Source: Planctomycetota bacterium
Lineage (GTDB): Bacteria > Planctomycetota > JAJSAM01 > JAJVHW01
Reading direction: 5' to 3'
DNA length: 64,000 nt
Assembly (NCBI GenBank): GCA_021776825.1
Contig: JAJFFG010000051.1
Coordinates: forward strand, 17,283 to 81,282
Below are positions 10,456 through 55,600 of the stretch, in pieces (the stretch's first letter is position 1; each line of letters opens with the position of its first letter). Position numbers and translations under genes: made by a program. The notes beneath the pieces were generated by a model. That model made no database searches. It saw only the letters and a program-made list of their open reading frames with translations, and was not told where the DNA came from.

Positions 10456-11592
10456 ATGCACCCCGAGCTCGCCGCGATCCCGATCGGCCGCGGCCGGGCC
10501 GAGCGCGCGCGCTTCTGGCGCTCCGGACTCCCGCCGTACGAGGGCGACCGGCACCACGTGGTCCCGCTGCTCATGGACTGCCACGCACGGTGGCACCCGG
10601 AGCACCCGTTCTTCCGGCACGCCGAGACGCAGCACTTCGTCCTCACCGGACCAGGCCGCCACGATGGGCGCATTGCCGCGACCGTGGACCGTGCCAACGA
10701 CGCGCTGGGCGAGGCGCATGTCGGACTGTTCGGCTGGTTCGAGTGCACGCAGAGTCCGAAGCGCGCCGAGTGCTTACTCGACGCCGCTGCGGCCTGGCTC
10801 CGCGAGCGCGGCTGCACGCGGATGCGCGGGCCCGTCTCGTACACGACCAATGGCCTGAGCGGGCTGCTCGTCGAGGACAACCACCCGGGCCCGCCGACGC
10901 TCGACATGCCCTACAACCCGCCGTGGTACGCGGAGCTCCTGGAGGGCTGGGGGCTCGAGAAGGCCCAGGACCTGGTCTCCCTGCGCCTCGACGTCGGTGC
11001 TGCGCCCGACCCGCGCCACGTACGGGTCACGGATCGCGCGCTGGCGCGAGGCGGGTTCTCGATCCGGCACGTCCGCGCCGATACTGCTGGGTTCGCCGCC
11101 GACGTCGAGCACGTCCTGCGCATCTACAACGGAGCCTGGGAGCAGAACTGGGGCTTCGTGCCGCTCACCGCGGGCGAGATCCGACACGAGGCGAAGACGC
11201 TGAAGAGTGTGCTCGTCCCGGAGCTGATGCTCTTCGTCGAGAAGGACGGAGAGCCAGTGGCGTTCTCGCTCACGCTCCCCGACCTCAATCAGGCTCTGCG
11301 CACGATTCGCGGACGCCTCTGGCCGTGGTCCGTGGTGCGGTTCCTGCGAGCGCGGAAGCAGATTGACCACGTCCGCGTCATCACCCTCGGCGTCCTGCCG
11401 GAGTTCCGGCGCAACGGGCTCGACATGGCGCTCATCGTTCGAACCCACCTGGCGGCGTATCCGCGCGGGGTCCGGAGCGCCGAGTGCGGTTGGGTCCTGG
11501 ACGACAACGACGCCATGATCTCGGCCATCCGACGGGTCGGCGGAGAGATCAGCCGAACCTATCGGGTGTACGAGCGCGACCTGTCACATTGA
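10456..11592 (+). CDS. GNAT-fold N-acyltransferase-like protein (candidate bacterial ceramide synthase)
   Basis: 378 aa. Only a 3-nt gap after the Spt-like gene, same strand. C-terminal acyl-CoA N-acyltransferase-like region (VITLGVLPEFRRNGLDMALI). Family assignment is from motif resemblance only. Confidence 0.45.
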   Translation: MHPELAAIPIGRGRAERARFWRSGLPPYEGDRHHVVPLLMDCHARWHPEHPFFRHAETQHFVLTGPGRHDGRIAATVDRANDALGEAHVGLFGWFECTQSPKRAECLLDAAAAWLRERGCTRMRGPVSYTTNGLSGLLVEDNHPGPPTLDMPYNPPWYAELLEGWGLEKAQDLVSLRLDVGAAPDPRHVRVTDRALARGGFSIRHVRADTAGFAADVEHVLRIYNGAWEQNWGFVPLTAGEIRHEAKTLKSVLVPELMLFVEKDGEPVAFSLTLPDLNQALRTIRGRLWPWSVVRFLRARKQIDHVRVITLGVLPEFRRNGLDMALIVRTHLAAYPRGVRSAECGWVLDDNDAMISAIRRVGGEISRTYRVYERDLSH

Positions 11593-11764
11593 CAGCCAAC
11601 GAGCCGAATCAAGTAGCCCCGCGCAGGGGGTCCGGCTAACCTGCGCCCCGCCCGAGGGCGTTCGGATTCGGACGCGGCACCGGGGCGCCACCCGACGTCC
11701 TGCGTGCGTGATCGCACATCTGGCGTCAGGCCGCTCCATCCGCTTCGACGCGTGAACGAGCGCC

Positions 11765-13591
11765 ATGCAGGAACGCTCGGGAGAACGACGGTTCACGCAC
11801 ACGGAAGGACCAGGCGTGGCGACCAGATCCAAGGCAGCGAAGTCGAAGGCAGCGAAGACGGGGCCTTCGAAGGCCGCGCGAGCGGCTCCAGCCCGCAAGA
11901 CGTCGACGAAGCCCACCGCCAAGAAGGCCCCATCCAAGAAGGCCACGTCGAAGAAGGCCCCATCCAAGAAGGCCCCATCCAAGAAGGCCACGTCGAAGAA
12001 GCCCGTGGCGAAGAAGTCCGCCGCCAAGCGGGCGACGCGCAACGCCCCGGCGAAGAAGGCCCCCGCGAAGAAGGCCCCCGCGCGAACGACCTCAGCGCGG
12101 AAGCCGACCGCGAAGAAGGCCCCGGCGAAGAAGATCACGGCGAAGAAGTCCACCGCCAGGAAGACGCCGGCTAAGAAGGCTCCGGCCAAGAAGGCCGCGT
12201 CGAAGCGCCCGGCTGCCAAGAAGCCCACCGCCCGCAAGGCTCCCGCACGGACGTCCACGACGAAGCGCTCGGCCACCAAGAAGCCGACGAAGTCGTCCGC
12301 GCGGAAGCCAGCGAAGAAGACCGCCAAGAAGCCCGCGGAGCGCACCGCGTCGACCAAGCCGGCCACGAAGTCGACGACGCGCCGCACGACATCGAAGAAG
12401 GCGCCCGTCAAGAAGACCACCGCGAAGAAGGCGGCGACCCGGAAGGCGCCCGCTAAGAAGGCGACCATCAAGAAGTCGCCGGCCAAGAAGGCGCCCACGA
12501 AGAAGGGCTCTGCGAAGAAGCCCGCCGCCAAGAAGTCCACAGGTAGGAAGACGGCGACGAAGCCGGCTGCAAAGACCACCGTGGCAACGAAGAAGACAGC
12601 GGCCAAGAAGGCCGCACCCAAGACGAAGAGGAGCACCCAGTTGGCCGATAGCCAGACCGGGTCCTCGGCGGAAACCGCCGGGGACCTCAGTACGAAGAAG
12701 TCCAAGTCCGCCTCGTCCGTCGCGACCGCGACGAAGACGGCGGGCGCGCGCCCGAAGCGCAAGCGTGAGCGCAAGCCGAAGCCGCCCGCGAAGACCATGA
12801 ACGCGCCCGAGCCGGTGCGCGACATCCTCCTGTCGATGGACATGCCCGACGTGCGCCGGGCGCGGACGGCGAACCAGCGTCGCCAGGCCTCCCGCGGCCA
12901 CCTCAAGCCGGCCCACACGGATGACCTCGCACAGGACGACATCACGGCGCCGCGTGAGCCGCTCGACGCGACGCTCATCATGAACACGCTGGCCGTCGAC
13001 GTGCAGCCGCGCATCGAGGATCACTACGACTACACGGTGCTCGAGGAGTTCAGCGAGTCCGACGAGTGCCCGCGCTCGACCCGCATGGTCAACACTGGCT
13101 GCGGTGGTGGCGAGGCAGCCGTCTTCTTCGCGAAGCGTGGGTTCCACTGCGTCGGGATCGATCCCGATCGCGGCGACGTCGGCCTCGCCCGCGAGCGTGC
13201 GTGGCTGGCCGGAGTGGACATCGACTTCATGGTCGGTGACCTCTTCGAGACCCCCAACCTCCTCCCCGGTGGTTCGTTCGGGCTCGCTGTGGATCGCGGC
13301 GCGTTCCACCGCATCGAGGAGCCGCGCGAACGTCAGCGCTACCTGGCGAACATTCGTCGGCTTCTCTCTGAGGGCGGCGTGCTGCTCCTCAGCGCCGGGT
13401 ACTTCCCGGTACGCTCCGAGAAGGGTCAGAGTCGCTCACGCCGCACCGGCGAGACGATCCTGCTCGCCGAGGAGGGTGGAGTCGTCGTCGGCGAGATGCG
13501 CACGGCGGGCTTCGCGTTGCTCCACCGCGTGCTGAGGCAGACGGCGGACTCGGGCGAGTTCGGCGAGCTGGTCCTCTACCTGCGGAAGTAG
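11765..13591 (+). CDS. fusion protein: histone H1-like Lys/Ala/Pro-rich repeat domain (about 300 aa) plus C-terminal class I SAM-dependent methyltransferase
   Basis: N-terminal (A/P/T)KK(A/P) repeats (AKKAPAKK, SKKAPSKK and similar). C-terminal Rossmann MTase motif I VNTGCGGGEAAVFFAKRGFHCVGIDPD and post-I acidic motif DFMVGDLF. Confidence 0.7.
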   Translation: MQERSGERRFTHTEGPGVATRSKAAKSKAAKTGPSKAARAAPARKTSTKPTAKKAPSKKATSKKAPSKKAPSKKATSKKPVAKKSAAKRATRNAPAKKAPAKKAPARTTSARKPTAKKAPAKKITAKKSTARKTPAKKAPAKKAASKRPAAKKPTARKAPARTSTTKRSATKKPTKSSARKPAKKTAKKPAERTASTKPATKSTTRRTTSKKAPVKKTTAKKAATRKAPAKKATIKKSPAKKAPTKKGSAKKPAAKKSTGRKTATKPAAKTTVATKKTAAKKAAPKTKRSTQLADSQTGSSAETAGDLSTKKSKSASSVATATKTAGARPKRKRERKPKPPAKTMNAPEPVRDILLSMDMPDVRRARTANQRRQASRGHLKPAHTDDLAQDDITAPREPLDATLIMNTLAVDVQPRIEDHYDYTVLEEFSESDECPRSTRMVNTGCGGGEAAVFFAKRGFHCVGIDPDRGDVGLARERAWLAGVDIDFMVGDLFETPNLLPGGSFGLAVDRGAFHRIEEPRERQRYLANIRRLLSEGGVLLLSAGYFPVRSEKGQSRSRRTGETILLAEEGGVVVGEMRTAGFALLHRVLRQTADSGEFGELVLYLRK

Positions 13592-14484: not shown

Positions 14485-15656
14485 ACCCCGCGTCGACCTC
14501 TCCCGCCCTCGCCGGTGCACTGGTGCCGCTCCAGCGCCGTGACGCGGGGAGTGGTGCGAAGATCGGAGCGGCGATCCTCGTCCGGCTCGACCACGCTCAG
14601 GCGTACGCACCGCGGGCGGTGACGGCCGTGGCGGCAGCTGCGGCTGACGGAGTCGAGCGGCTCTCGGCCTACGGAGCCGGATGGGCCGCGGATGTCGCCG
14701 CCGTCGCTGCTGCGCGCGACATCCCGTGCACTGCGGTGATCGAGGAGGACGCGCCGACGACGTACGTGACGCTCCTCGCCGCACTGGGCGCGGAGATCCA
14801 GCGTGGGCCCGGCGACGTGCCGGGGAGCACGCTCGTCGATCCCGCAGAGGGGCTGGACCCGCCCGCCGAGGACGTCGAAGGAGATGTCCTCGTCGGCTAC
14901 GGCCGCGCGCCGGAAGGGGCCGCCACGCGCCGTGTGGGGGTGACGGTCTCGGGCACCTCATCGAGCGGCCTGTTCCCGGCATCGCGGATGGACGCCGCGG
15001 ACGAGCTCATCAGCGTCGACGCGCGCGAAGCGATCGCTGCGGCGCGCGCGGTGGCGCGCGACGATGGCCTGCTGGTCGGACCGGCCTCGGGTGCCGTTCT
15101 CGCGGTGGCTCGGCGCCTCGCGGGCGAGATCGCCGACGACATGCGCGTCATCGCCGTCCTCCCGGACGGTGGCGCCGCCGCGCTGGCGACGATCCACGAC
15201 GAGGCCTGGCTGCGTCGACACGGGCTGCTCGCCGACACTCCGGCCCTGACCGCCGCCGACCTTCTCTCGCGCAAGGGCGGCGGGCCCCAGGACATGGTGA
15301 TGCTCGCACCCGACGCGAGCGTCGATCATGCGATCCGGATCATGCAGGACCTCGAGGTCTCGCAGATCCCGATCGTCGATGAGGGCGAGGTCGTGGGCAC
15401 GATCCGCGAGGATCAGGTCATCGACCTCCTCCTGCACACGCCGGAGCGCAAGGACGGCCCGGTGGCGGACGTCATGGACGATCCGCTCCGCGAGATCACG
15501 CCCGACGCGGATATCGAAGACATCCAAGCGATGATCGTGGCCGGCGGCTCCGCCCTGATCGTGCGGTGGCCCGACGGCCGACGAGAGATCCTCACGAAGT
15601 ACGACCTGATCCACGGACTCGCGCGCGAGTCCGGCGACCGAGACGAGGAACGATGA
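14481..15656 (+). CDS. cystathionine-beta-synthase-like protein (fold-type II PLP domain plus tandem CBS domains), probably catalytically degenerate
   Basis: ATG at 14481 overlaps the PAP2 stop (ATGA). The C-terminal half carries two CBS-domain-like segments. The N-terminal CysK/CBS-like fold lacks the conserved SVKDR lysine (replaced by AQAYAPRA). The upstream part of ORF 13845..15656 is rejected. Confidence 0.6.
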   Translation: MNPASTSPALAGALVPLQRRDAGSGAKIGAAILVRLDHAQAYAPRAVTAVAAAAADGVERLSAYGAGWAADVAAVAAARDIPCTAVIEEDAPTTYVTLLAALGAEIQRGPGDVPGSTLVDPAEGLDPPAEDVEGDVLVGYGRAPEGAATRRVGVTVSGTSSSGLFPASRMDAADELISVDAREAIAAARAVARDDGLLVGPASGAVLAVARRLAGEIADDMRVIAVLPDGGAAALATIHDEAWLRRHGLLADTPALTAADLLSRKGGGPQDMVMLAPDASVDHAIRIMQDLEVSQIPIVDEGEVVGTIREDQVIDLLLHTPERKDGPVADVMDDPLREITPDADIEDIQAMIVAGGSALIVRWPDGRREILTKYDLIHGLARESGDRDEER

Positions 15657-18160: not shown

Positions 18161-18164
18161 GTTC

Positions 18165-18339
18165 GATCCGTCGTCGGCGCGGGTGGGTCACCCCGCACAC
18201 AGTCGCGTGGCCCGTCGGTCGCAGCCTTGCGTGGCCTCAATCCACGCGTCACCGACGGCGCCTGCGCGAAGCGCAACCTCCGCGCCCCGGGTTCGGATTC
18301 GGGTGGGTGTCGTCTCCTCCAATCCAACGCGATCGCTAC
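18165..18339. repeat. truncated copy of composite repeat (unit tail plus GC stem-loop connector)
   Basis: Contains cggtcgcagccttgcgtggcctca and gcgcaacctccgcgccccgggt, shared with the loci at 21313, 43323 and 55036. Confidence 0.6.
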
Positions 18340-18630
18340 GTCAACGGCGGCGTAGGGGCGGACCCCCTGGTCCGCCCCGCCCGCTGGGGTTGCTCGCGCC
18401 ATGCGGGTCCGATGGCGCACTGCGAACGACCGGCGCGACGCGGACGGCCATCGGACGACGGCGCCGAACCCGATGGACTTCCCTGTGCGTCGGCGTCATC
18501 GGGTCGCGACGGGGATCGCCCGTGACGGACCGATCCACCCCCCCAGCGGTCGCTCGCTGACCGCCATCCACCCGCCTCATCCGGGCGACGCGTGTCGGCG
18601 GGGCGGACCGGGGGGTCCGCCCCTACGGGC
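18340..18630. repeat. MITE-like element copy A (about 290 bp) with about 22-bp terminal inverted repeats containing nested palindromes
   Basis: 5' end GTCAACGGCGGCGTAGGGGCGGACCccctGGTCCGCCCC. 3' end GGGGCGGACCggggGGTCCGCCCCTACGGGCGG. The ends are inverted with respect to each other, and each holds its own palindrome. Confidence 0.7.
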
Positions 18631-18687
18631 GGTCCCGGAAGTTCCCGACGCCGTCCGGGCGGCATACCCGATCGAACGGTGTCGCAA

Positions 18688-18880
18688 CTCAACGGTCCCG
18701 TACGGGCGGATCTCCTGATCCGCCCGCGCCCGCTGGGGTCGCTCGCTCTGGGCGGGTCCGACGGCGCTCGGCGGACGACTCGCGTGATGCGGACAGCCGT
18801 CGGTCGATCTGATGGCGGCTCGACGTCGGGGCTCGATCCCTCGATGACGCCGTCGGCGCCCCCGCCTACCCCTCGTCGGG
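18688..18880. repeat. MITE-like element copy B (partial, 5' TIR of the GATCTCCTGATC variant)
   Basis: Starts CTCAACGGTCCCGTACGGGCGGATCTCCTGATCCGCCCGCGCCCGCTGGGG. Core is homologous to copy A (gcccgctgggg...gggtccgacggcgc...gatgcggacagccgtcgg). Confidence 0.6.
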
Positions 18881-19493: not shown

Positions 19494-21311
19494 ATGAGCG
19501 CCGACTCCGCTCCGCTACTCGTCGATGTCGAGCGTCCGATGCGCCGCCTGTTCCGCTACCTGCGGCCCATGCGAGGTCGACTGACGTTCTCGGTCGTCTC
19601 GAGCGTGCTGAACAAGGTCTTCGACCTGATGCCGCCGCTGCTCGTGACGTGGTTCGTGGACGTTGCGCTGCGCGAGTCGCCAGAGTGGCTGTCGGCCATC
19701 TCCGGAGAGGGTATCCAGCCGGAGCTGATCGCTCTGGGCGTCCTCACCGTGATGATCTTCGCGGGCGAGAGTCTGTTCCAGTGGATGTACAGCTGGGGGT
19801 TCATGACGCTCGCGCAGAACCTGCAGCACCGCCTCCGTGTCGACGCCTACGACCGCATGCAGGAGCGCGAGCTGCGCTTCTTCGAGGAGCACCGGTTGGG
19901 CCGGACGCTCTCGATGCTGAACGACGACGTCAATCAGCTGGAGCGCTTCCTCAACGCGAGCCTCAGCGATCTGGTGCAGCTCACCGTGCTCGTGCTGTTC
20001 GCGGGCACGGTGCTGCTCTCGACGGCGCCGACGCTGGCGCTGATCGGGCTCGCGCCGGTGCCGCTGATCATCTGGGGCAGCCTCCGATTCTCGAAGCTGC
20101 TCGAGCCGCGCTACGCGCGAGTCCGCGCCGCGGTCGGTGAGCTCGCCGCGCGCCTCGAGAACAACATCGCTGGCATCCTCGTCATCAAGAGTTTCACCGC
20201 CGAGGAGCACGAGAGCGCCCGCGTCGAAGAGGTCTCCGACGACTACCGCCGCGCCAATCACGACGCGATCCGGCTCTCGGCCGTCTTCGTCCCTCTGATC
20301 CGCATGGCCATCGCCGTCGGCTTCGCCGGGGCCCTCGTCGTGGGCGGAACGTGGGTGGCTTCCGGCGAGCTGAAGGTGTCGGTCTTGGTGCTGTTCGGGA
20401 TGATGATCCAGCGCATCCTCTGGCCGATGACGCGGCTCGGAACGACGTTCGACGAGTACCAACGCGCAGCGGCGAGCGCTCGGCGCGTCTTCAGCCTCCT
20501 CGACACGCCGTCACAGGTGGTTGACCCCGCCGAGCCGCTGGAGCTCACAGCCGTGCGCGGCGAGATCGCGTTCGACGACGTCGTCTTCGACTATCACCGC
20601 GGCGAGAGCGTTCTGCGCGGGCTGTCGTTCCGGGTCGCTGACGGTGAGACCGTCGGCGTCGCCGGCCCGACCGGAGCCGGCAAGTCCACGCTGATCAAGC
20701 TCCTGCTCCGCCTCTACGACGTGACCGGTGGAGCCGTCCGCATCGACGACACCGATGTGCGGGGCGTGCGTCAGCGAGACCTCCGGCGTCAGATCGCCGT
20801 GGTGACGCAGGACGTCTATCTGTTCCACGGGACCATCCACGAGAACATCGCCTACGGTCAGCGCGCGAACGGCGTGACCGAACCGACGTTCGAAGAGGTC
20901 CGCGCCGCGGCACAGGCGGCGCATCTTCACGAGTTCGTGGCGACGCTGCCCGACGCCTACGAGACGGTGGTCGGCGAGCGCGGCATCAAGCTCTCCGGCG
21001 GGCAGCGCCAGCGGCTGAGTCTGGCGCGCGCCATCCTGAAGGACGCTCCCGTACTCGTGCTGGACGAGGCGACGAGCTCCGTCGACACCGAGACGGAGCG
21101 CCAGATCCAAGAGAGTCTGCGCAGTCTGGCCGCGGGACGGACGGCCATCGTCGTGGCGCACCGACTGAGCACGATCCGTCACGCAGATCGCATCCTCGTG
21201 CTCGACGACGGCCGCGTCGTCGAGGAGGGTCGCCACGACGATCTGGTGGCATCCGGCGGGCTGTATGCGGATCTGTGGAACGTGCAGTCGGGGAACATTC
21301 GGCCGGAGTAG
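19494..21311 (+). CDS. ABC transporter, fused permease/ATP-binding exporter (MsbA-like type I exporter)
   Basis: Six N-terminal TM helices. NBD with Walker A GPTGAGKST, ABC signature LSGGQRQRLSLAR, Walker B VLVLDEATSSVD and an H-loop. Confidence 0.9.
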   Translation: MSADSAPLLVDVERPMRRLFRYLRPMRGRLTFSVVSSVLNKVFDLMPPLLVTWFVDVALRESPEWLSAISGEGIQPELIALGVLTVMIFAGESLFQWMYSWGFMTLAQNLQHRLRVDAYDRMQERELRFFEEHRLGRTLSMLNDDVNQLERFLNASLSDLVQLTVLVLFAGTVLLSTAPTLALIGLAPVPLIIWGSLRFSKLLEPRYARVRAAVGELAARLENNIAGILVIKSFTAEEHESARVEEVSDDYRRANHDAIRLSAVFVPLIRMAIAVGFAGALVVGGTWVASGELKVSVLVLFGMMIQRILWPMTRLGTTFDEYQRAAASARRVFSLLDTPSQVVDPAEPLELTAVRGEIAFDDVVFDYHRGESVLRGLSFRVADGETVGVAGPTGAGKSTLIKLLLRLYDVTGGAVRIDDTDVRGVRQRDLRRQIAVVTQDVYLFHGTIHENIAYGQRANGVTEPTFEEVRAAAQAAHLHEFVATLPDAYETVVGERGIKLSGGQRQRLSLARAILKDAPVLVLDEATSSVDTETERQIQESLRSLAAGRTAIVVAHRLSTIRHADRILVLDDGRVVEEGRHDDLVASGGLYADLWNVQSGNIRPE

Positions 21312-21312
21312 G

Positions 21313-21737
21313 GCGGGGCCGGATGAGGTCACGTCGATTGCGAGCAGTCGGTTGGTGACGCGCTTCGGGACATGCGGCAATCGCCGTGCCCACGGTGTCT
21401 CTGGTCGGCTCCGCGGCCGCGTCACCTCGCTAGCGAGCGCGTTGCCCCTCGGTCGCACCCTTGCGTGGCCTCCACTACCCGCGTCACGGCGCGGGGTCAC
21501 GCCGATTGCGGGCGGTTCGTTGGTGACGGGCATCGGGGCCTGCGGCAATCGCCGCGCCTCCGTTGTTGTTGGTCGGCTCCGCGGCTGCGTCTGCTCTCAC
21601 GCAAGAGCAGACCCCTCGGTCGCAGCCTTGCGTGGCCTCATTCCCCGCGTCACGGCGCTTGCGCTGACGCGCAACCGCAGCGCGCAGGGCTAGGATCCGG
21701 GTCGGCCTCGCCCCCGCCAACCTCACGCGATCGCTGT
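21313..21737. repeat. tandem array of about 169-bp hairpin units plus GC stem-loop connector (composite repeat, plus orientation)
   Basis: GTCACGnCGATTGCG at 21328 and 21497; GCGGCAATCGCCG(T/C)GCC at 21374 and 21543, so period 169 bp. Connector CGCGTCACGGCGCTTGCGCTGACGCGCAACCGC at about 21645-21680. Confidence 0.7.
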
Positions 21738-22073
21738 GTCAACGGCGCCGTAGGGGCGGACCCCCTGGTCCGCCCCGCCGACGCGCGCCGCACGCACGAC
21801 TCGGGTGGATGGCGCACCGCGGACGAGGACCGTCGTGTGTTCGGCGACCGGCCGACGGCGCGGTCGCGGCGAGGCGGATGGGAAGCCATCCGGATTGACC
21901 GACGACCGTGCGCATCAAGTCATCGTTCGCTGAGCGCCCGCGTGCCCGAGTCCTCCGCGCGCGCCCCAGTCGGCGGGGTGGATCAGGAGATCCACCCGTA
22001 CGGCAGTTCGGGCACCGATCCGCGAGGTCCTCGTAGGGGCGGGCCCCCGGGCCCGCCCCTACGGCGCCGTTGA
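21738..22073. repeat. MITE-like element copy C (336 bp) with perfect 22-bp TIRs
   Basis: 5' GTCAACGGCGCCGTAGGGGCGG and 3' CCGCCCCTACGGCGCCGTTGAC are exact reverse complements. Nested palindromes GGGGCGGACCccctGGTCCGCCCC and GGGGCGGGCCcccGGGCCCGCCCC. Confidence 0.75.
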
Positions 22074-22079
22074 CCTAGC

Positions 22080-22490
22080 GTGTCCGTGGGATCGGAGGAG
22101 ACGACACCCATCCGGATCCCCACCCGGGGCGCGGAGGTTGCGCGTCAGCGCAAGATCCGTGACGCGGGTATGGAGGCCACGCAAGGCTGCGACCGGGGGG
22201 AACCGCTCTCGCGTGCGAGGTGACGCAGCCGCGGAGCCGACCAGAGACAAACGAGGGCGCGGCGATTGCCGCATGTCCCCGATCAGCGCCCGCCGATCCA
22301 CGGGCCCGCAATCGCCGTGACCGCCACGCAAAGGCAATGGAGGCCACGCAAGGGTGCGACCGAGCAGGCAACGCCCTCGGCAGCGGGGTGACGCACCCGC
22401 GGAGCCGACCAGACAACAAACTAGGGCGCGGCGATTGCCACATGCCCCCGACGAACGCCCACCCACCGGGCGCCCAGCAATCGCCGTGAC
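22080..22490. repeat. inverted (reverse-complement) copy of the connector plus tandem hairpin-unit array
   Basis: ggcgcggcgattgccgcatgtccccgat is the reverse complement of the unit atcggggacatgcggcaatcgccgcgcc. gcgcgtcagcgcaag...cgtgacgcggg is the reverse complement of the connector. Confidence 0.7.
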
Positions 22491-23912
22491 CTAGTTCCTC
22501 TGCAACTCCGCCGGGGTCATCGACACGCCTTCGGGCGGCGTGTCCTTGTTCTTGTCCCACCACTTCTTCGCGGTGCGCGCTCGGCGGCGGCGCTCGGCGA
22601 GGGACTGGTCCTGCGTGACCTCGAAGTCCTGCTGCGTGATGTTGCGCAGGGCGAAATTCGCCTGCTGCGCGACGTACGCCTCCTTGTCCTCGAGCGCCTC
22701 GATCAGGTACGGCGTGGCGAACCACGACTTCAACATCGAGAGCGAGCGGGCACAGGCGCGCCGCACCAGGAAGTGCTTGTCGTTCACAAGAGCCCAGGCG
22801 AGCGCCGGCGTGGCGGCGGGATCGCCAATGCGGCCGAGTTCGTTGGCGGCCGGGAAGCGCACGCCGTCCTCACCGGACTCGAGCAGGTCCTTCGAGAGAC
22901 GCACGACCTCCTCGTTGACCTCGGGAACCACTGGCTGGTCGTCCCGCGGCTGGTCGTCCACTCTTGTTCGCTCGGGAGTCGTGTCGGTCTTCTTGACGAC
23001 GACCTCGGGTCGCGTGACGGTCGCGTTCGCACGCGAGACGACATCGTCGATCCGCTGCTGCAGTCCCTTGAGCTCGCCCTCCATCCGTGCGACGCGCTGG
23101 TCGAGTCGCACGTCGTCCCGAGCCAGGTCGGCGCGCACGCCGGCCAGATCGGTCCGGAGTTTCCCGATCTCGTCGGCGACGTCGCCACCCACGGCCTCGG
23201 CGAACTTCTTGAGTTCACCGGTGATCGCGGCGCGATCGTCGTCGCGCTGCTTCGCGATCTTCGCGATGCGCCCGTCCATCTCGGCGCGGAGTGCGGCGAC
23301 CTCGTCGCTCGGAGTCGGACCGCCCGCCATGCGTTTCTGCACCATCGGACCGATCACGTAGCCGATGCCGCCAGCCAGCGCTGCAACGATGAGGAAGACG
23401 GCCAGCACGCGCAGACCACCGCCGCCCGACTTCGACGACGAGACGGCGCGACAACTCTCACAGACGACGCGGTCGCCCTGGACGAGTGCCTTGCCCGTCA
23501 CGACATGACTGTGCGGCACGACCGCTGAGCAGACGTTGCACCGCGTCGGCTTGACGGGGTCCTCCGCCTCGATGTCGGCAGCCATCTCGGCCTCGACCGC
23601 CTCACGACGCGCGGCCCGCTTGCCGGGATCAGCCTTCGTGCACACGGCGCAGAGGAGCGAGCCGTACTCCTTTCGAGCACGACCCGAGCGCTGGTCCGAC
23701 GCAGGGACCGACACGCGGCAGTTCGCGCAGAAGAGAAGCTCGAGCTCGGTGCCGTCGTCGGTGGCCGGCGCGGTCTCCGCTGGCTTCGCGTCGGCCGCTC
23801 CGTCGCGATGCTCCGAGCAGAGGTTCTTGCCGCCTTCGCCCATGGCGAGGCCAGACTCGACCTCCACGTTGGGGATCGACACGCCACACACACTGCAGAA
23901 ATGGAGTTCCAT
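22491..23912 (-). CDS. membrane protein: three N-terminal CxxC zinc ribbons, one TM helix, coiled-coil region, C-terminal HEAT/PBS-lyase-like repeats
   Basis: Probable start MELHFCSVCGVSIP (ATG rc at 23910-23912), with GGAGAG 7 nt upstream. CxxC pairs: CSVC...CSEH, CANC...CAVC, CNVC...CESC. TM helix LRVLAVFLIVAALAGGIGYVIG. C-terminal segment DPAATPALAWALVNDKHFLVRRACARSL is HEAT-like. Confidence 0.6.
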   Translation of the reverse strand: MELHFCSVCGVSIPNVEVESGLAMGEGGKNLCSEHRDGAADAKPAETAPATDDGTELELLFCANCRVSVPASDQRSGRARKEYGSLLCAVCTKADPGKRAARREAVEAEMAADIEAEDPVKPTRCNVCSAVVPHSHVVTGKALVQGDRVVCESCRAVSSSKSGGGGLRVLAVFLIVAALAGGIGYVIGPMVQKRMAGGPTPSDEVAALRAEMDGRIAKIAKQRDDDRAAITGELKKFAEAVGGDVADEIGKLRTDLAGVRADLARDDVRLDQRVARMEGELKGLQQRIDDVVSRANATVTRPEVVVKKTDTTPERTRVDDQPRDDQPVVPEVNEEVVRLSKDLLESGEDGVRFPAANELGRIGDPAATPALAWALVNDKHFLVRRACARSLSMLKSWFATPYLIEALEDKEAYVAQQANFALRNITQQDFEVTQDQSLAERRRRARTAKKWWDKNKDTPPEGVSMTPAELQRN

Positions 23913-24420
23913 CAAGGTCTCTCCGTGGCCTGCCATTCTAGCCCCCGTTCGCAGCCTGGCGCGTTCGTCGTCGGGAAACCGCGGTGCGAGGCCCCGTGCC
24001 CACGACCGCGAGTCCGATCTCGATCGCCAGAAGGGCCGCAAGGGGCGTGCCCGCCGCGAGCGCTATCGCTCGCGAGCGACCACGAACGCGCCCGGCAGGG
24101 AGCGCGAGGAAGTTCGCCGTGGCGTGAAGGTCGCGCGAACAGGTTGCGCGCGGCCGGGAGTTCGGTCAGATCGAGTCGTGACGAGCCCGGTCTGTCAGAA
24201 GGCGCCACGTCGGCCATCTGAACGGTGACCATCTGAACGGTGAATATCTGAACAGTGACCATCTGCACGGCGGCAGACGGAGCCGCTGCGGGCCGCGGGT
24301 CGGGACACGATGCGCGGAGACACCGTGCGTTGAGACACCGTGCGTTGAGACACGGTGCGTTGAGACACGGTGCGTAGAAGTACCGTGCGTCGAAGTACCG
24401 CGCGCCGCGAGGGCGCGGCG

Positions 24421-24501
24421 CTACATCACGAAGAAGGCGACGACCACCATCACGATCGCGACGAGAACGGGCAGCTCGGATGCAGCCTGGCGAACGGACA
24501 T
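24421..24501 (-). CDS. possible small hydrophobic peptide (26 aa)
   Basis: Reverse-complement ATG..TAG ORF: MSVRQAASELPVLVAIVMVVVAFFVM. GAGG is upstream of the ATG. Too short to validate. Confidence 0.2.
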   Translation of the reverse strand: MSVRQAASELPVLVAIVMVVVAFFVM

Positions 24502-25958: not shown

Positions 25959-26099
25959 CCAGCGGCCCGTTTGGGACAGGGTGAGGAACAACGTTTCCAC
26001 TCGATCGTTCTCTCTCGATAACGATCGTTCTCTGGATCCCGACGGCTAGGGGGGGAAGTCCAGTGGTACGGCGTGTGCAAAAGGAACGGTGCGATCCCC

Positions 26100-26537
26100 T
26101 CAAAAAGGCGGCGTCAGGAGAGTCCCAAGCGGGGCCCTGGCGCCGTCGATCGTTTGGGGCCGGCCTACCGGGCTCACACGCACGGTCGCGCGCCCGGTAC
26201 GCCGGCCCCTCGACGGAGTGGTACCCGGGACGACACAGTGAGGAACACGGCGCGACGCGCTACGCACGCAGCACGAAGCGGCGAACTGGGCCGGAGTCGT
26301 CGACGTCGAACGCATCGGGGTCGGCGCAGCACGCGCGGAAGTAGGCCAGCGAGGCGGCGGGTCGAGGGTCGTGGTGTCGCTGAACCCGTCGAAGGTGAGG
26401 CCAGTCGCCGTGACGCGGAACGTGTAGCGGAACACGAGGCCGCGCTCCGGCACGAGCGCTCCCGTCCAGACGAGCTCCTTCAGCGCGTGTCCCTCGGGCC
26501 ACGGGTTCCCCGGGAACCAGATGCGGCCGTTCACGAC
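26100..26537 (-). CDS. hypothetical protein (only the N-terminal roughly 70 aa look protein-like)
   Basis: The frame continues downstream of the LAB_N gene: NGRIWFPGNPWPEGHALKELVWTGALVPERGLVFRYTFRVTATGLTFDGFSD, followed by an R/S/P-rich tail that may be spurious. Confidence 0.2.
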   Translation of the reverse strand, partial: VVNGRIWFPGNPWPEGHALKELVWTGALVPERGLVFRYTFRVTATGLTFDGFSDTTTLDPPPRWPTSARAAPTPMRSTSTTPAQFAASCCVRSASRRVPHCVVPGTTPSRGRRTGRATVRVSPVGRPQTIDGARAPLGTLLTPPF

Positions 26538-26836
26538 GGTGGTGCCTCGGCCGCGCGACGCTTGCGGTACACGAGCACGAGGTTCCGCGTGTAGACGACG
26601 AGGCCGAACATCTGGCCGAGCACCGCGGGCGGGGATGCGATCTGGATGAAGTAGACGAGCGAGATCGCGCCGCCGACGAGCGAGCACCACCAGAACCCGA
26701 TCGGGATGACGCTCTCGCCGCGACGCTCCGACACGACCCACTGCAGTGCGAAGCGCGTGAAGAAGATGCCCTGCCCCACGAAGCCGAGGATGTGGATCGG
26801 GTCCTGGAGAGCCCCGAGGAGCTCGCTCCAGTTCAC
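26531..26836 (-). CDS. lipid A biosynthesis N-terminal (LAB_N) domain small membrane protein
   Basis: About 101 aa, three hydrophobic helices (ILGFVGQGIFFTRFALQWVVSE...IGFWWCSLVGGAISLVYFI...). GTG start overlaps the stop of the upstream GT2 gene. This family characteristically partners GtrB/ArnC-type GT2 enzymes. Confidence 0.65.
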   Translation of the reverse strand: MNWSELLGALQDPIHILGFVGQGIFFTRFALQWVVSERRGESVIPIGFWWCSLVGGAISLVYFIQIASPPAVLGQMFGLVVYTRNLVLVYRKRRAAEAPPS

Positions 26837-30702: not shown

Positions 30703-32175
30703 ATGGAGTCGAACAGCGGAACTTCGTCGCAGCCCGACCGCTCCGGGCGGGATCGCCTCGTTCGCGCGAGCTGCAACGTCGGCGTGTTCGGTCTCGCCCT
30801 CGGGATCGCGCTGTATGGGCTCGGTCGAGCGGACCTCTGGCACGACGAGGCCGCGTCGCTTCACTTCGCACGGCTCTCGCTCTCGGAGCTGCCGGGAGAG
30901 CTCGCGCGGCGGGACAACCACGGGCCGACGTACTTCGCGTTCCTGCACGCCTGGGCGTCGGTATTCGGCGAGGGCGCGTTCGCTGCGCGTCTGCCCTCAG
31001 CGCTCGCTGCGGCGCTCGCTTGCGTCGGGACGACGTGGATCGGGCAACGGATCGCCGGGCTTCGCGCCGGAGTCGCCGCTGGGGTCCTCCTCGCCACGAG
31101 CCCGATGCACCTCTGGCACGCGCAAGAGGTGCGCTTCTACGCACCCGCTCTGATGCTCGTGACGGCCCAGGTGGCTGCGGCGATGACGCTCTGTGATCGA
31201 CCGACGCGACGGAGAGCAGCGGTGCTCGGCGCCACCGCCCTACTGGGCTTCTCCACGTTCTACCTGGTCGGGCTGGTGTCGATCGCGATCGCCGCCGGCG
31301 CGTTCCTCGGGCGCGACGACGCCGCACGCGCCAGTCGGCGGCACGTCATCGGCGCGTTCGCGGGCGCGGCGGCGGTCGGCCTGCTCTGGGTGCCGTCGCT
31401 GATCGAGCAGTCGCGTCACGCGCTGCGGTTCCTGTCGTGGATCCCCGATCGACCGATCGGACAGTTCCTCGTGGACGTCGGTCTGGAGGCGGTCGCCGGC
31501 GAGGGTGGCGCAGGCATCCTCCCTTCGATGGCGATCATCGCACTCTGCCTCGCGAGCGCCGTGTTCGTCGCGGCCACGATCCGACGGCGGCGGCCCGACG
31601 ATCTGCTCATCACCTTCTGGCTCGTCCTGCCTCTTGTCGTGGTGCTCGTTCTCTCGCTGCGGCAGTCGTTCCTGTTGGTGCGCTACCTCTACATCGCGCT
31701 GCCGGCGCTGTACGTTGCTGCGGCCGCGGGGATCGCACTCCTGTCGCGTCGACGACCGGGACGTCTCGGCGGATGGGCGCTCGCCGCCGTTGGTGCCGGA
31801 CTCGTGCTCCCTGCGCAGGGTCTGGGTCTGCTCGATCAGCACAGCGCCCCGAAGCGCCCCGAGCGCTGGCGGGAGGCGGTCGCGTGGGTCCGTCCGCAAC
31901 TTCGCGCCGGCGACGTGCTGGCGGTGGCTCCGCACTGGGACCTGTACACGCTGGAACTCCACTTCGACGGCGCCGGGCCATTCGTCGCCCTGCGGGCTGA
32001 CGAGGACTCGCTCTCCTCGCTCGGCAACGATGCGCGTCGTCTGTGGGTGCTGCAGTCGTTCGACGAGGGGGAGCCGACGCGGATCGCCCTGCGCGAGGAC
32101 CTGACCCTCAGCGACGAGCGCACCTTCGGCACGCTTCACGTCGACCGGTTCGAGTTGGCGCGAGACGACCGTTGA
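30703..32175 (+). CDS. GT-C fold membrane glycosyltransferase, ArnT/PMT-like, paralog 3
   Basis: DE motif LWHDEAASLHFA after the first TM. About 12 TM helices. Confidence 0.7.
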   Translation: MESNSGTSSQPDRSGRDRLVRASCNVGVFGLALGIALYGLGRADLWHDEAASLHFARLSLSELPGELARRDNHGPTYFAFLHAWASVFGEGAFAARLPSALAAALACVGTTWIGQRIAGLRAGVAAGVLLATSPMHLWHAQEVRFYAPALMLVTAQVAAAMTLCDRPTRRRAAVLGATALLGFSTFYLVGLVSIAIAAGAFLGRDDAARASRRHVIGAFAGAAAVGLLWVPSLIEQSRHALRFLSWIPDRPIGQFLVDVGLEAVAGEGGAGILPSMAIIALCLASAVFVAATIRRRRPDDLLITFWLVLPLVVVLVLSLRQSFLLVRYLYIALPALYVAAAAGIALLSRRRPGRLGGWALAAVGAGLVLPAQGLGLLDQHSAPKRPERWREAVAWVRPQLRAGDVLAVAPHWDLYTLELHFDGAGPFVALRADEDSLSSLGNDARRLWVLQSFDEGEPTRIALREDLTLSDERTFGTLHVDRFELARDDR

Positions 32176-33695
32176 ACGAGCTGGCTCCGCTGCTTCGCCT
32201 TGGTCCAACGCTCGTCGCCGCGCTCGCGATCTGGGCGCTCACGACGGCGTGGCTCTCGTGGTGTGGGCGCACCGGGCGCGACCGACTCGCGTTCTGGCCG
32301 CTCGCCGCCGTCGCGAGCGGCGCTGCGCTGTTCTGGGCGGCGCAGGTCGGGGTGGACTGGGACGAGTCCGAGCACCTGCACGCCGCGTGGCGCGTCGCGG
32401 TCGGTGAGCGGCCGTTCGTCGACTTCTGGCAGCACCACTCGCCGACACTCTGGTTCGTGACGTCGCCACTCGCCGGAGCGCTCGGCGAGTCGCCGTGGCT
32501 CATTCCGGTCGCAAGGGCGCTGAGCACGATCGCGACCATCATCGCGGCCTGGATCGCATGGCGTCTCGCCCGGCGACTGCATGGCGACGTCGCGTCGCCG
32601 TCACGGTTCGTGTTCCTGTTCGCTGCGGGCGCGATCACGTGGCAGTTCGCCTGGCTGCGGCCGGACGTGCCCGCCCTGCTCTTGCTCCTCGGTGCCGGTC
32701 ACGCGTGCGTCGACGTCGCCGAGGGTCGCCGCCGCGGCGCGCTGCTCGCGGGAGCGATGCTGGCACTCGCGTGGGGCTTCGCGCCGAAGCAGTTGGCCTT
32801 CGCCGTGCTGCCGCTGGGCGCCATCGTCTTGGGCGGGATCGGTCCGGGCAGGCGAGACCGGCTCCCGCATCGGCTCGGAGCCTTCGGGATCGGCCTCGTC
32901 CTCGGCGCCGCGCCCCTCGTCGGCGTGCTCCTGCAACAGGACCTCGCCCACGCGTTCTGGCAGAACGTGGTCCGCTTCAACGCGCAGCACGTCGGACCCG
33001 GGTTCCCGTTCGGACCAGCGTGGCTGGTGCTCGGGACCGCGGCGGCCGTTGCTGCGTGGCGGCGGTCGGATCGCTCAGCTGCGGGCAGCGTACTCGTCGT
33101 TGCACTGGCTCTCGTCACGCTCGGTTCCGTGGTCGCCGTGCAACACACGGCCCGCTACCACCTGGCGCCGTGGATGGTGCTGGTCGCTGTGCTTGCGTGC
33201 GGTGCAGACGTTCCGGCCGGACTGGGCGGACTGGGCGGCCGCGTCCGACCCGCCGTGATCGGCCTCCTCTGCGCACTGCTTCTCGTGCCCGGTCTCCGGC
33301 AGGCCTGGAACGCGCGCGGCGAACTCTCCCAGGACATCGCGCGGCGCACGGAGTTGCTCGCGGTCTCGCGCGGCGAGAGCGTCCTGTGTGTCCATCCCGA
33401 CCATCCGATCGCTCGGCCGGACGCGACGCGCCTGCACTCGACGTGGCAGCTGCGCTTCACGCGGCGCAATCAGCTGACGCCGCTGGAACCCGACACCGGC
33501 GCGGGGTTCCTGGACCGCATGCGCGCGGCCCGCCCTGCTGTCGTCGTCACCGAGATCGATCAGGTGCCGATCGCCGAAGCCCTTGCCGCGCGCGGCGTTC
33601 TCTCCGAGGCTGAGGCGCTGGAGCTGAAGACGCTCCTCAGCAGTGCCTACGCGCTGCGAGTCGTCGCAGGCCGGACGTTCTACGTTGCGGAGTAG
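32172..33695 (+). CDS. GT-C-like polytopic membrane protein, paralog 4
   Basis: TTG start overlapping the upstream stop (TTGA). DWDESEHLHAAW acidic loop motif. Many TM helices. The upstream part of ORF 32043..33695 overlaps paralog 3 and is rejected. Confidence 0.5.
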   Translation: MNELAPLLRLGPTLVAALAIWALTTAWLSWCGRTGRDRLAFWPLAAVASGAALFWAAQVGVDWDESEHLHAAWRVAVGERPFVDFWQHHSPTLWFVTSPLAGALGESPWLIPVARALSTIATIIAAWIAWRLARRLHGDVASPSRFVFLFAAGAITWQFAWLRPDVPALLLLLGAGHACVDVAEGRRRGALLAGAMLALAWGFAPKQLAFAVLPLGAIVLGGIGPGRRDRLPHRLGAFGIGLVLGAAPLVGVLLQQDLAHAFWQNVVRFNAQHVGPGFPFGPAWLVLGTAAAVAAWRRSDRSAAGSVLVVALALVTLGSVVAVQHTARYHLAPWMVLVAVLACGADVPAGLGGLGGRVRPAVIGLLCALLLVPGLRQAWNARGELSQDIARRTELLAVSRGESVLCVHPDHPIARPDATRLHSTWQLRFTRRNQLTPLEPDTGAGFLDRMRAARPAVVVTEIDQVPIAEALAARGVLSEAEALELKTLLSSAYALRVVAGRTFYVAE

Positions 33696-33782
33696 CCGGG
33701 CTCGGTCACGGCGCGCGCGAAGGATCTCGGCGCTCCGATGACAGAATCCACCGCACTGGCACGGCCGCCACCCGTTGGTGAG

Positions 33783-43328: not shown

Positions 43329-43934
43329 CGGTCACGGCGATTGCGGCGGGCGTCGAAGGTGGGCGCGCGTCGACACAGTGGCAATCGCCGCGCCCGCTAG
43401 TGCTGTCTGGTGTGTGCTCGGACTCGTCACGCGTCACGCGAGGGAAACCGGCGCCGGTCGAGGACCTCCGCGCACACATTCCCCGCGTCACGGCGCGGGG
43501 TCACGTCGATTGCTGGTCGTGGGTTGGTGACGCACATCGGGACATGCGGCAATCGCCGCGCCTCCCATGTTTCTGGTCGGCTCCGCGGCTGCGTCACCTC
43601 TCACGCGAGAGCAACCCCCTCGGTCGCAGCCTTGCGAGGCCTCATCTCCCGCGGGGGCGGTCACGATCTCCCGCGGGGGCGGTCACGGCGATTGCGGGCG
43701 GTCGGTTGGTGACGCCGATCGGGGCATGAGGCAATCGCCGCGCCCTCGTTGTTGAGTGGCGTGTGCTCGGTCTCATCACGCGTCACCCGAGGGCAATCGG
43801 CGCCGGTCGAGGACCTCCGCGCACACATTCCCGCGTCACGGCGCTTGCGCTGACGCGCAACCGCCGCGCCCCGGGTGAGGATCCGGGTGCCGGTCGCCTC
43901 CTCCCGTCCAACCGGTCCATTACCTCAACGGCGC
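43323..43934. repeat. tandem array of three about 180-bp hairpin units plus GC stem-loop connector (composite repeat)
   Basis: GTCACGnCGATTGC at about 43323, 43500 and 43681, each followed about 45 bp later by GCAATCGCCGCGCC. Connector CCGCGTCACGGCGCTTGCGCTGACGCGCAACCGCCGCGCCCCGGGTG at about 43835-43880. Confidence 0.7.
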
Positions 43935-44205: not shown

Positions 44206-44214
44206 GGGCGGATC

Positions 44215-44345: not shown

Positions 44346-44347
44346 TC

Positions 44348-55572: not shown

Positions 55573-55600
55573 CTGTCGTTCCCCTGATGGCATCGACGGA

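Follow-up and report, generated by a model that had tools for sequence, protein, structure and literature searches.

The spacer between two convergent genes at positions 21313–22490 of the DNA analyzed here (a stretch of 64,000 nt from a Planctomycetota contig, called the window below) forms an imperfect palindrome. At face value, 1.2 kb of such symmetry would point to dedicated machinery (a cruciform, an insulator, or a recombination switch), but the data below favor a simpler reading. Pfam confirms the flanking genes of the original prediction, with ABC_membrane and ABC_tran domains in a plus-strand gene that ends at 21311 and a minus-strand gene for a HEAT_2 protein that ends at 22491. Truncation of the HEAT gene by the repeat array was considered and rejected, as its C-terminus is full length relative to nine homologues. 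Codon-position GC periodicity is absent in the spacer, which is therefore noncoding, and long ORFs that run across the repeat (e.g., 21372–22073) were rejected as coding on the same ground. The features of the locus are as follows.

19494–21311, plus strand: ABC exporter (ABC_membrane and ABC_tran, Pfam), stop TAG at 21309–21311, GC3 periodicity 0.89
21308–21326, plus strand: stop codon and 15-nt leader GTAGGGCGGGGCCGGATGA, read from the sequence
21327–21494, plus strand: unit L1, 168 nt, made of H1, H2 (type a), and the linker CCCGCGTCACGGCGC
21495–21662, plus strand: unit L2, 168 nt, tandem copy of L1 at 78–81% identity
21659–21737, plus strand: left tail module T, with the hairpin TTGCGC-TGAC-GCGCAA, a CCCGG..CCGGG motif, and a pyrimidine tract
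21738–22004, minus strand: REP doublet (the "MITE copy C" of the original prediction), with head-to-head GTAG hairpins at 21750–21776 (plus) and 21975–22001 (minus)
22005–22031, no strand: 27 nt of unique sequence that separate the solo REP from the doublet
22032–22075, minus strand: solo GTAG REP that closes the right arm, the palindrome CGTAGGGGCGGGCCC CC GGGCCCGCCCCTACG (22032–22063) followed by GGCGCCGTTGAC
22076–22155, minus strand: right tail module T, from the MAFFT alignment and the tail alignment
22156–22322, minus strand: unit R2
22323–22491, minus strand: unit R1, junction confirmed by contig L029
22491–23912, minus strand: Zn-ribbon/HEAT_2 protein P0001, 473 aa (Pfam), C-terminus full length

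The inverted symmetry within 21326–22492 is real and far above chance level. A blastn search of the region against itself aligns 21326–21776 with 22492–22036 over 467 columns, of which 77.5% are identical (E 4.8e-92). A repeat search recovers inverted arms of 170 nt at 79% identity (21612–21781 and 22031–22200) and of 79 nt at 90% (21396–21474 and 22171–22249), and in a MAFFT alignment of 21313–21790 with the reverse complement of 22025–22493 the two arms stay colinear throughout, first unit through terminal hairpin. Each arm consists of two tandem units of ~168 nt (166–169), a tail of ~80 nt, and a GC hairpin. Self-blastn and MAFFT thus agree with the earlier proposal of one large, imperfect inverted repeat, in which oppositely oriented copies of a composite repeat flank a hairpin-ended element, though its limits shift. 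The colinear inverted arms cover 21326–21781 and 22031–22492; the nonsymmetric center is 249 nt (21782–22030) and not 336 bp, since the arms run on through the tail and the first hairpin. There are indeed two inverted arms, but the right one overlaps the HEAT stop codon by 1 nt, and the left array, while it does follow the ABC exporter, begins 15 nt past the exporter stop. An assembly chimera is ruled out: 23% of positions are different between the arms, and the sequence agrees with that of an independently assembled short-read contig from Logan (L029). This contig is 100% identical to 24369–22424 of the window, reproduces the HEAT/array junction, and ends 67 nt into H1; we take this break inside the repeat as a sign that the repeat is multicopy.

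Large centers and mismatches disfavor cruciform extrusion in duplex DNA. With 23% mismatch, several indels, and the 249-nt center, the whole-region cruciform that had been suggested for 21313–22490 is unlikely on these general grounds. The perfect palindrome at 22032–22063, whose 15-nt arms are 100% complementary, is the only realistic local candidate in the region. A weak CRISPR-DR29 match at 22033–22062 is this palindromic REP, and a CRISPR was rejected because the units lack unique spacers.

The modules of the two arms recur in the window, where the family is confined to four spacers, all between convergent genes; about 8 of the 39 junctions between called genes are convergent. The three sister loci are the following.

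18161–18865, plus strand: locus A, convergent spacer, with fragmentary H2 and linker, tail, REP doublet, and an extra REP half-element
43329–44347, plus strand: locus C, convergent spacer, with three units, tail, REP doublet, and an extra REP half-element
about 55033–55600, plus strand: locus D, convergent spacer, with one unit whose start overlaps a TAG stop, tail, and REP doublet

A single array is present at all but one of the four loci. That the palindrome is a unit in its own right is therefore not supported, as the same modules stand as single, nonpalindromic composites in three other convergent spacers. The arms are not homogenized with each other. Left and right units share 65–77% identity, while the left units are 80–82% identical to unit C2, located 22 kb away. 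The tails of the two arms (five copies of the tail in the window, mean column identity 81%, alignment A5) are 69% identical, the lowest pair. H1 types are arm specific, whereas H2 relationships cross between arms and loci. Since the arms are not each other's closest relatives, the region is neither a recent inverted duplication nor a homogenized unit.

Between the two arrays lies the element described earlier as a MITE. Its hairpin, with GTAG, a 10-bp GC stem, and a 4-nt loop, is a GTAG-tagged REP, a class defined by GTAG at one end (GYAG and GTRG being allowed), a stem of 6–13 bp, and a short loop (Di Nocera et al. 2013, PMC3733652). It follows that the "MITE" is a head-to-head, REPIN-like doublet of such REPs. 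Eleven GTAG-type hairpins occur at the four loci in 64 kb (8 GTAG, 3 GTAC), with GC stems of 10–11 bp and loops of 2–4 nt, where 0.97 pattern matches are expected by chance. The G, T, and A columns of the tag are invariant (alignment A4), and the stems show the compensatory variants CGGAC/GTCCG, CGGAT/ATCCG, TGGAT/ATCCA, and TGGGT/ACCCA. The hairpins fold at −18.5 to −34.1 kcal/mol (z −3.8 to −5.0), and none of 200 shuffles was as stable; the solo REP at 22032–22075 gives −34.1 kcal/mol (z −4.5). The hairpins lie in convergent spacers near stop codons, as GTAG-tagged REPs do. Four doublets are present (18352/18626, 21750/22001, 43936/44174, and 55292/55560), each of two inverted REPs and a spacer, as in a REPIN, which replicates as a unit. 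In the doublets GTAG faces outward, and the spacer is conserved: its alpha and beta halves are homologous across the four loci at ~70–88% local blastn identity. In the 21738–22004 doublet, the ~190-nt spacer comprises the beta half and the alpha half, and the alpha-to-beta order matches the right-arm orientation. TIR-like ends are present in this doublet (36 nt, 83%), and inspection found no direct target-site duplication flanking the four doublets or the composites, so they are not classical MITEs. A relative (L028) has four GTAGGGGCGACC...GGTCGCCC REPs. In REPIN/REPtron systems, the cognate RAYT is an IS200/IS605-like Y1 HUH transposase encoded in the same genome; no RAYT or other transposase was found by Pfam among the 44 scanned ORFs of the 64-kb window.

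The order of the doublet halves bears on the idea that a recent local inverted duplication has made the region a fragile site, cruciform-extruding and unstable or invertible. Long inverted repeats can mediate inversion of the intervening segment, and the alpha/beta order relative to the left array is opposite to that at loci A, C, and D, as inversion between inverted REPs would give. However, the arms carry several indels and are no closer to each other than to their paralogues, so any duplication would be old, the center disfavors extrusion as noted above, and the independent assembly agrees at the sole junction it reaches. We therefore regard this explanation as extremely unlikely.

The arrays have a fixed relation to the genes they follow. 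The four H1-headed arrays begin +15, −1, +1, and −2 nt relative to a TAG stop and are co-oriented with the gene they follow; in unit R1 the first G is the G of the HEAT gene TAG stop codon. The orientation rule holds for five of five arrays (p about 0.03, statistically weak within the 64-kb window). As with orientation, a TAG or TAA stop precedes five of five arrays against a 50% background (p about 0.03, marginal over the same 64 kb), the background counts being 18 TAG, 20 TGA, and 2 TAA. By eye, the leader GTAGGGCGGGGCCGGATGA resembles the 5′ half of a GTAG REP (GTAGGGGCGGGCC), which suggests that 21308–21326 may be a REP remnant whose TAG acts as the stop of the ABC exporter. The mirror symmetry of the locus arises because each array adjoins, and is co-oriented with, its upstream gene.

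The same gene pair in relatives indicates how the spacer arose. The orthologous HEAT and ABC genes are convergent and 141 nt apart in one relative (L030) and 232 nt apart in another (L032), versus 1179 nt here, and neither of these two spacers contains such a structure. The spacer here was expanded from an ancestrally short one. The repeat family is genome specific, no copy having been found outside the source genome in the databases searched. A gapped H1 pattern gave 6 single matches in 185,579 species genomes and 20 in JGI metagenomes, and these 26 were rejected as chance because they show no blastn similarity to the composite. A six-frame pseudoprotein of the repeat had no match among 5.8 billion proteins, and distant-mode blastn of a plasmid collection returned no match. 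The recombination hotspot of the original prediction is plausible for this region and fits both the mosaic shuffling of modules and the 141–232 nt spacers of the two relatives.

An expansion of this kind could also be imagined as a single event, in which the whole 1.18 kb is a foldback-type mobile element with ~460-nt terminal inverted repeats that inserted between the two stop codons. Its arms would be expected to run colinearly from first unit to hairpin, as they do, and the bounds are exact, a TAG at the left end and a CTA at the right. Yet each of these trinucleotides is a gene's stop codon, and the two genes are 141–232 nt apart in the two relatives; the composite has only one arm at loci A, C, and D; the arms here have diverged by 23% and show mosaic relationships; and no direct target-site duplication is present. 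A foldback element is thus very unlikely.

Each unit holds two hairpins, H1 and H2. H1 in L1 has the stem GGTCACGNCGATTGC / GCAATCGCCGNGCC and a variable loop of ~35 nt; H1 matches number 8 in the window versus 0 expected. In the unit consensus structure, pairing is kept in 93% of cells versus 37–48% in slid controls, and 10 pairs are changed on both sides; in H2, the compensatory changes go back to one event, the divergence of subfamily a from subfamily b. Outside the family, the short motif GTCACGGCGC shows no enrichment. The conserved pairing, and a nearly invariant H1 stem sequence, would be expected if the 168-nt units were genes for a new structured noncoding RNA, that is, sRNA arrays and not selfish repeats. 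Against this, single-unit folding z-scores are not significant for whole units on either strand (H2 and tail z about 0, H1 only −1.2 to −1.5 against shuffles). No Rfam match reaches the gathering threshold in the whole window, and the E-value threshold yields only two subthreshold chance matches in the region; no promoter-like site occurs in it, and no homologue turned up in the species genomes or JGI metagenomes above. Neither alifold energies nor G-U versus A-C counts reveal a consistent sense/antisense asymmetry, which gives no support to a role at the RNA level. The units are, moreover, tandem, mosaic, and variable in copy number, as is typical of selfish repeats. We give the sRNA explanation very little credence. 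Neither the 168-nt units nor the tail is a REP, both lack a described counterpart, and a link between them and a RAYT would be purely inferential.

Folding of the region as a single strand strongly favors a giant hairpin, with an MFE of −891 or −934 kcal/mol versus −620 or −629 kcal/mol for local folds with a pair span of ≤200 nt, and 335–364 arm-to-arm pairs. This is an argument for selection on the palindrome as a whole, which would serve the convergent pair as an insulator or bidirectional terminator: read-through RNA from either gene would form an imperfect duplex of ~460 bp, and its RNase III-type cleavage would halt antisense transcription into the partner gene. The arms begin at stop codons with no other terminator between gene and array: no stem plus U-tract (intrinsic) terminator was found within 21312–22490, the only two matches lying in the HEAT coding sequence. 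In E. coli, moreover, the presence of REPs between convergent genes correlates with raised expression of the two (bioRxiv 10.64898/2026.03.23.713779). However, three of the four convergent spacers with these modules carry a single array, the arms are not kept alike (the tails being the least similar pair and the left-arm units nearer to locus C), and two relatives keep the gene pair without such a structure. Overlapping convergent transcripts would also be fully complementary already, without an inverted repeat. We consider a selected palindrome unlikely. A bidirectional terminator or insulator role for the region is plausible only by analogy with REP elements.

Taken together, the region is probably two diverged, lineage-specific REP/BIME-type mosaic composites placed tail-to-tail, and not a dedicated palindrome. 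The recurring composite runs from a stop codon through one to three ~168-nt units (H1, H2, linker) and the ~80-nt tail to a GTAG REP hairpin, which is usually the outer end of a head-to-head doublet, and it always points away from the gene it follows. One composite would follow the ABC exporter and the other the HEAT gene, sharing the central REP doublet, and with two composites tail-to-tail the mirror symmetry is an automatic byproduct. The elements would have spread as nonautonomous DNA, mobilized probably by a RAYT-like HUH transposase that acts on single-stranded hairpins next to (G/C)TAG, and copies would persist where insertion is harmless, at the 3′ ends of convergent genes. Because nothing lies between stop codon and array, each mRNA would have to enter its own sense-oriented array. 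There the hairpins may act as E. coli REPs do, as a barrier to 3′ exonucleases and a partial termination signal; REP325 of E. coli is both a partial terminator and an mRNA stabilizer (bioRxiv 10.64898/2026.03.23.713779). A transcript that crosses the center would be expected to fold back into long, imperfect dsRNA. A bolder version of these ideas is distinctly unlikely: that the 168-nt arrays are a new, gene-anchored 3′-end module, inserted strand-specifically by an HUH enzyme 3′ of (G/C)TAG and hence co-oriented with the gene whose stop was targeted, and that the 460-bp foldback of facing arrays would serve as a read-through "fuse" that converts run-on RNA into RNase III-sensitive dsRNA and so insulates both genes.

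Several features of the proposed composites are known from other repeat systems. REPs occur mainly between convergent or unidirectional ORFs, those in convergent spacers lie mostly <20 bp from both 3′ ends, and their GTAG termini often supply a TAG stop (PMC3733652). Known REP biology therefore already covers the convergent spacers, the closeness to stop codons, and the TAG supplied by GTAG. GTAG-tagged REPs typically exceed 100 copies per genome; head-to-head dimers with conserved spacers dominate, and large clusters vary in composition (PMC3733652). Like GTAG REPs (PMC3733652) and REPINs (Bertels & Rainey 2011, PMC3116915), the hairpin CGTAG-GGGCGGATC-TCCT-GATCCGCCCC combines the tag with a GC stem of 10 bp and a short loop, and the family falls into subfamilies with compensatory stem changes. 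It likewise occurs mostly in inverted doublets whose outer ends carry GTAG and whose conserved spacer is able to fold as one long hairpin, and it lies in convergent spacers near ORF 3′ ends, where TAG in the repeat region coincides with stop codons. It differs in that the doublet spacer of ~190 nt has two unlike halves, whereas described dimers mostly have spacers of 20–100 bp (PMC3733652), and in that the last G of GTAG is paired and 3 of the 11 copies read GTAC.

Enterobacterial BIMEs are regularly spaced REPs in alternating orientation with conserved non-REP motifs between them (Nunvar et al. 2010, PMC2817692). The present locus also has alternating REPs with conserved spacers, but non-REP tandem units in a single orientation make up the greater part of it. 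BIMEs have been characterized by the binding of IHF, gyrase, or Pol I, and the RIMEs of rhizobia are mosaic repeats comparable to BIMEs. Like both, the composites combine palindromic units with other conserved motifs, vary in composition by locus, and lie at gene 3′ ends; they differ in that their non-REP modules are large (168-nt double-hairpin units and an 80-nt tail), tandem, and strictly polar to the upstream gene. The BOX elements of Streptococcus pneumoniae have the form boxA-(boxB)n-boxC, with units of 45–59 nt. They resemble the composites in having a modular head, a tandem middle unit of variable copy number (1–3 here), and a tail; there is, however, no sequence relation, the host is unrelated, and BOX is not known to be tied to REP hairpins or stop codons. 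Finally, the Correia elements of Neisseria are MITEs proposed to act as terminators and RNase III substrates, and like these the composites are hairpin forming, noncoding, and probably co-transcribed with neighboring genes. They differ in the absence of an identifiable target-site duplication, in having GTAG stem-loops as ends and not simple terminal inverted repeats, and in that no parent insertion sequence is known for the family.

On this reading, a private REP/BIME-like family of the source organism has inflated several convergent spacers about 5-fold. Such repeat clusters explain why short-read assemblies break at these points, and they flag spurious ORFs in these regions. The family adds a large, modular, REP-associated group from an uncultured high-GC lineage. 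Among the five arrays and eleven REP hairpins studied, all within the 64-kb window, the arrays are strictly polar and abut TAG stop codons; if true genome-wide, this would inform how REP-associated elements choose their targets in REP/RAYT systems.

The ABC exporter gene (ABC_membrane and ABC_tran domains; plus strand, stop at 21311) and the convergent gene for the Zn-ribbon/HEAT_2 protein (P0001, here the HEAT protein; minus strand, stop at 22491) flank a region, 21312–22490, that lacks codon-position GC periodicity and is therefore non-coding; the window has a G+C content of 70%. As originally predicted, the region has inverted symmetry: a blastn self-comparison aligns 21326–21776 with the reverse complement of 22036–22492 at 77.5% identity over 467 columns (E 4.8e-92), and a repeat search of the locus returns inverted arms of 170 nt (79%) and 79 nt (90%). 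In the arm-against-arm alignment proposed with that prediction, made here with MAFFT, the arms are colinear end to end. Each arm contains two tandem units of 166–169 nt (L1 and L2 on the left, R1 and R2 on the right). The asymmetric centre is 249 nt (21782–22030) and not the 336 nt claimed, because the symmetry continues through the tail and the GC hairpin. The elements occur in the following order.

21311, plus strand: stop of the ABC exporter gene
15-nt leader
Units L1 and L2
Tail
Doublet of GTAG hairpins (REPs) enclosing halves beta and alpha
27 nt
22032–22063: solo REP, a perfect palindrome
Tail, inverted
Units R2 and R1, inverted
22491, minus strand: stop of the HEAT gene

Alignment of the window's eight units reveals three parts: a hairpin H1, a hairpin H2 and a linker (CCCGCGTCACGGCGC). 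The H1 stem is nearly invariant and interrupted (GGTCACGNCGATTGC / GCAATCGCCGNGCC) with a variable loop of ~35 nt, and H2 comes as version a or version b, distinguished by compensatory differences at five or six pairs. The last unit is followed 3' by a tail of ~80 nt, the five copies of which have a mean column identity of 81% in their alignment, then by GTCAACGGCGCC and a hairpin, GTAG-GGGCGGATC-TCCT-GATCCGCCCC. The window contains 11 of these GTAG hairpins, as compared to 0.97 pattern matches expected by chance. They usually form both outer ends of a ~265-nt element, the MITE of the original prediction, with an interior built of two dissimilar halves, alpha and beta. Two short linker-like fragments (CCCGCGTCACGGCGCGG) are also present, at 14534–14554 and 33696–33714; one of the two, GGTCACGGCGCG, lies directly 3' of the TAG stop of ORF 32043–33695. 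Both may be single, degraded leftovers of the family, or may match the linker by chance.

Family modules are also found at 18161–18865, 43329–44347 and 55036–55600, and neither blastn nor a window-wide self-comparison reveals further copies in the window beyond these four loci. In a gene map built from GC3 periodicity, all four are spacers between convergent genes, a class that makes up about 8 of the 39 junctions between called genes. The other three loci are single-armed, reading stop, one to three units, tail and REP doublet. The four arrays headed by H1 start at +15, –1, +1 and –2 nt relative to a TAG stop, each oriented away from the gene whose TAG it adjoins; the locus at 18161–18865 has no H1, and its fragmentary H2 begins ~10 nt past a TAA stop. 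Truncation of the HEAT gene by the array is ruled out, as the protein is full length relative to nine homologues, and the array therefore adjoins the natural stop. With this polarity, two arrays behind two convergent genes necessarily form an inverted repeat. The inverted repeat consists of members of a dispersed family and is not a unique palindrome. The 40 called genes of the window end in TGA (20), TAG (18) or TAA (2), and 14 of the 18 TAG codons are preceded by G, which makes GTAG common at gene ends. For a genome of 70% G+C, this proportion of TAG seems high to us.

The GTAG-tagged REP is defined by GTAG, a GC stem and a short loop (Di Nocera et al. 2013, PMC3733652), and the window hairpins (GTAG, GC stem of 10–11 bp, loop of 2–4 nt) are GTAG-tagged REPs by this definition. 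Their folding is thermodynamically exceptional (z –3.8 to –5.0), and their compensatory stem variants are of the subfamily type known from REPs. The doublets carry GTAG on the outside and are therefore head-to-head dimers; with their conserved spacers they match the arrangement of a REPIN (PMC3116915). By eye, the 15-nt leader 3' of the exporter stop (GTAGGGCGGGGCC...) resembles the 5' half of a REP. REPs lie mostly between convergent and unidirectional ORFs, most of those in convergent spacers are ≤20 bp from both 3' ends, the TAG stop codon is often furnished by the GTAG terminus, and the composition of large REP clusters varies (PMC3733652). Since these properties match, the location, stop-codon closeness and TAG association seen here are known REP behaviour.

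Left-arm and right-arm units are 65–77% identical, while left-arm units are 80–82% identical to C2, a unit of the 43329–44347 locus 22 kb away, and the tails of the two arms are the least similar tail pair of all (69%). These relationships exclude both a recent inverted duplication and arm-to-arm homogenisation. H1 types are specific to the arm, and H2 relationships cross arms and loci. The sequence comparisons fit arms that are old members of a mosaic family, each independent of the other, and the two are not kept as a pair.

Across the units, 93% of cells keep the consensus structure, versus 37–48% with slid partners, and ten pairs are changed on both sides; one split, between versions a and b, accounts for most of the H2 compensation. 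Neither whole units nor H2 nor the tail folds better than shuffled sequence. No sense/antisense asymmetry is seen, so the hairpins may matter either in RNA or in single-stranded DNA. As a single strand, the whole region is predicted to form one giant hairpin (–891 / –934 kcal/mol, versus –620 / –629 kcal/mol for local folds), which would matter only where a transcript or a replication intermediate extends across the centre. A duplex-DNA cruciform of the whole region is unlikely given the 23% arm mismatch and the 249-nt centre; the perfect 32-nt palindrome at 22032–22063 is the only good local cruciform candidate. No stem-plus-U-tract terminator, sigma-70-like promoter or Rfam match is found in 21312–22490.

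The closest homologues of the HEAT protein are only ~61% identical. The HEAT/ABC pair is convergent in two relatives, with spacers of 141 nt (L030, 3628–3768) and 232 nt (L032), and other genes lie between the two in relatives L027 and L028; none of these four loci shows similarity to the window repeats. L028 (HEAT protein 61% identical) has, in another spacer (2300–2670), a cluster of four GTAG REPs whose stem is related (GTAGGGGCGACC..GGTCGCCC). Downstream of both its HEAT and ABC-exporter orthologues lies a different element of ~370 nt (6794–7163 and 10799–11220), bounded by terminal inverted repeats of 62 nt. The orthologous spacer of L032 contains a ~205-nt TIR element (11465–11669) whose inverted ends are 25 nt long and finish in CTAG; the 141-nt spacer of L030 has no obvious repeat. 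Hairpin elements have therefore colonised the spacer repeatedly and in independent events, with about five-fold growth in the window's lineage. In 185,579 species genomes and in JGI metagenomes the H1 pattern gave chance singletons only, and the unit-and-tail family appears private to the source genome.

An independent short-read Logan contig (L029, SRR15505515) matches window 24369–22424 at 100% and ends 67 nt into H1 of R1, so the junction is confirmed; a multi-copy repeat would be expected to cause such a break inside H1. The contig's break at 24369 falls within the second of two 15-nt tandem arrays (CCATCTGAACGGTGA x3.8, GAGACACCGTGCGTT x4.9) that lie between the HU and HEAT genes, upstream of the latter (24214–24424). 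The arrays may be iterons that bind a regulator, or belong to a further repeat family; another GTAG-tagged hairpin (GTAGCGCCGCGCCCTCGCGGCGC, minus strand) starts at 24424.

Several other features of the window were recorded. Long 15/45-nt coding repeats of Lys-Lys-Ala-Pro type (AAGAAGGCCCCGGCG) at 11900–12535 have high GC3 in ORFs of both strands (11584–13014, minus; 11756–13591, plus) and are probably a histone-H1-like basic tail of ambiguous coding strand. A 1794-aa fusion (37532–42916, minus strand; Pkinase, AAA_16, TPR, GAF, Sigma54_activat, HTH_8) is encoded by a gene ending 18 nt from a convergent HEAT/VWA gene, and L027 and L032 encode similarly built proteins (1763 and 1756 aa) near the HEAT gene. 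To us, this joining of a kinase to a sigma54 activator recalls Myxococcota. The 874-nt spacer between a convergent Kdo-kinase-like gene and a glycosyltransferase gene (25959–26832) contains neither coding periodicity nor a copy of the repeat family. A ~165-nt repeat pair (2754–2918 and 3890–4054), one copy of which is in or beside a glycosyltransferase gene, is unrelated to the family described above.

The composites in these convergent spacers are modular and polar, abut stop codons and are associated with REPs. They probably spread as non-autonomous DNA, for which a RAYT-like HUH enzyme recognising the GTAG hairpins would be the most plausible mobiliser; none of the 44 window ORFs scanned encodes a transposase. 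The symmetry behind the original prediction stands, and its interpretation only in part. Foldback of the two arms into an insulator between the convergent genes is possible, but is not favoured because three other convergent pairs are served by single-armed clusters and short spacers suffice in two relatives. We instead suggest that each convergent mRNA would enter its own sense-oriented array, whose hairpins would serve as partial terminators and 3'-end stabilisers, as E. coli REPs do (bioRxiv 10.64898/2026.03.23.713779). The family, which is new and private to its lineage, is of the REP/BIME/REPIN kind with unusually large tandem modules, and the palindrome at 21312–22490 is incidental.
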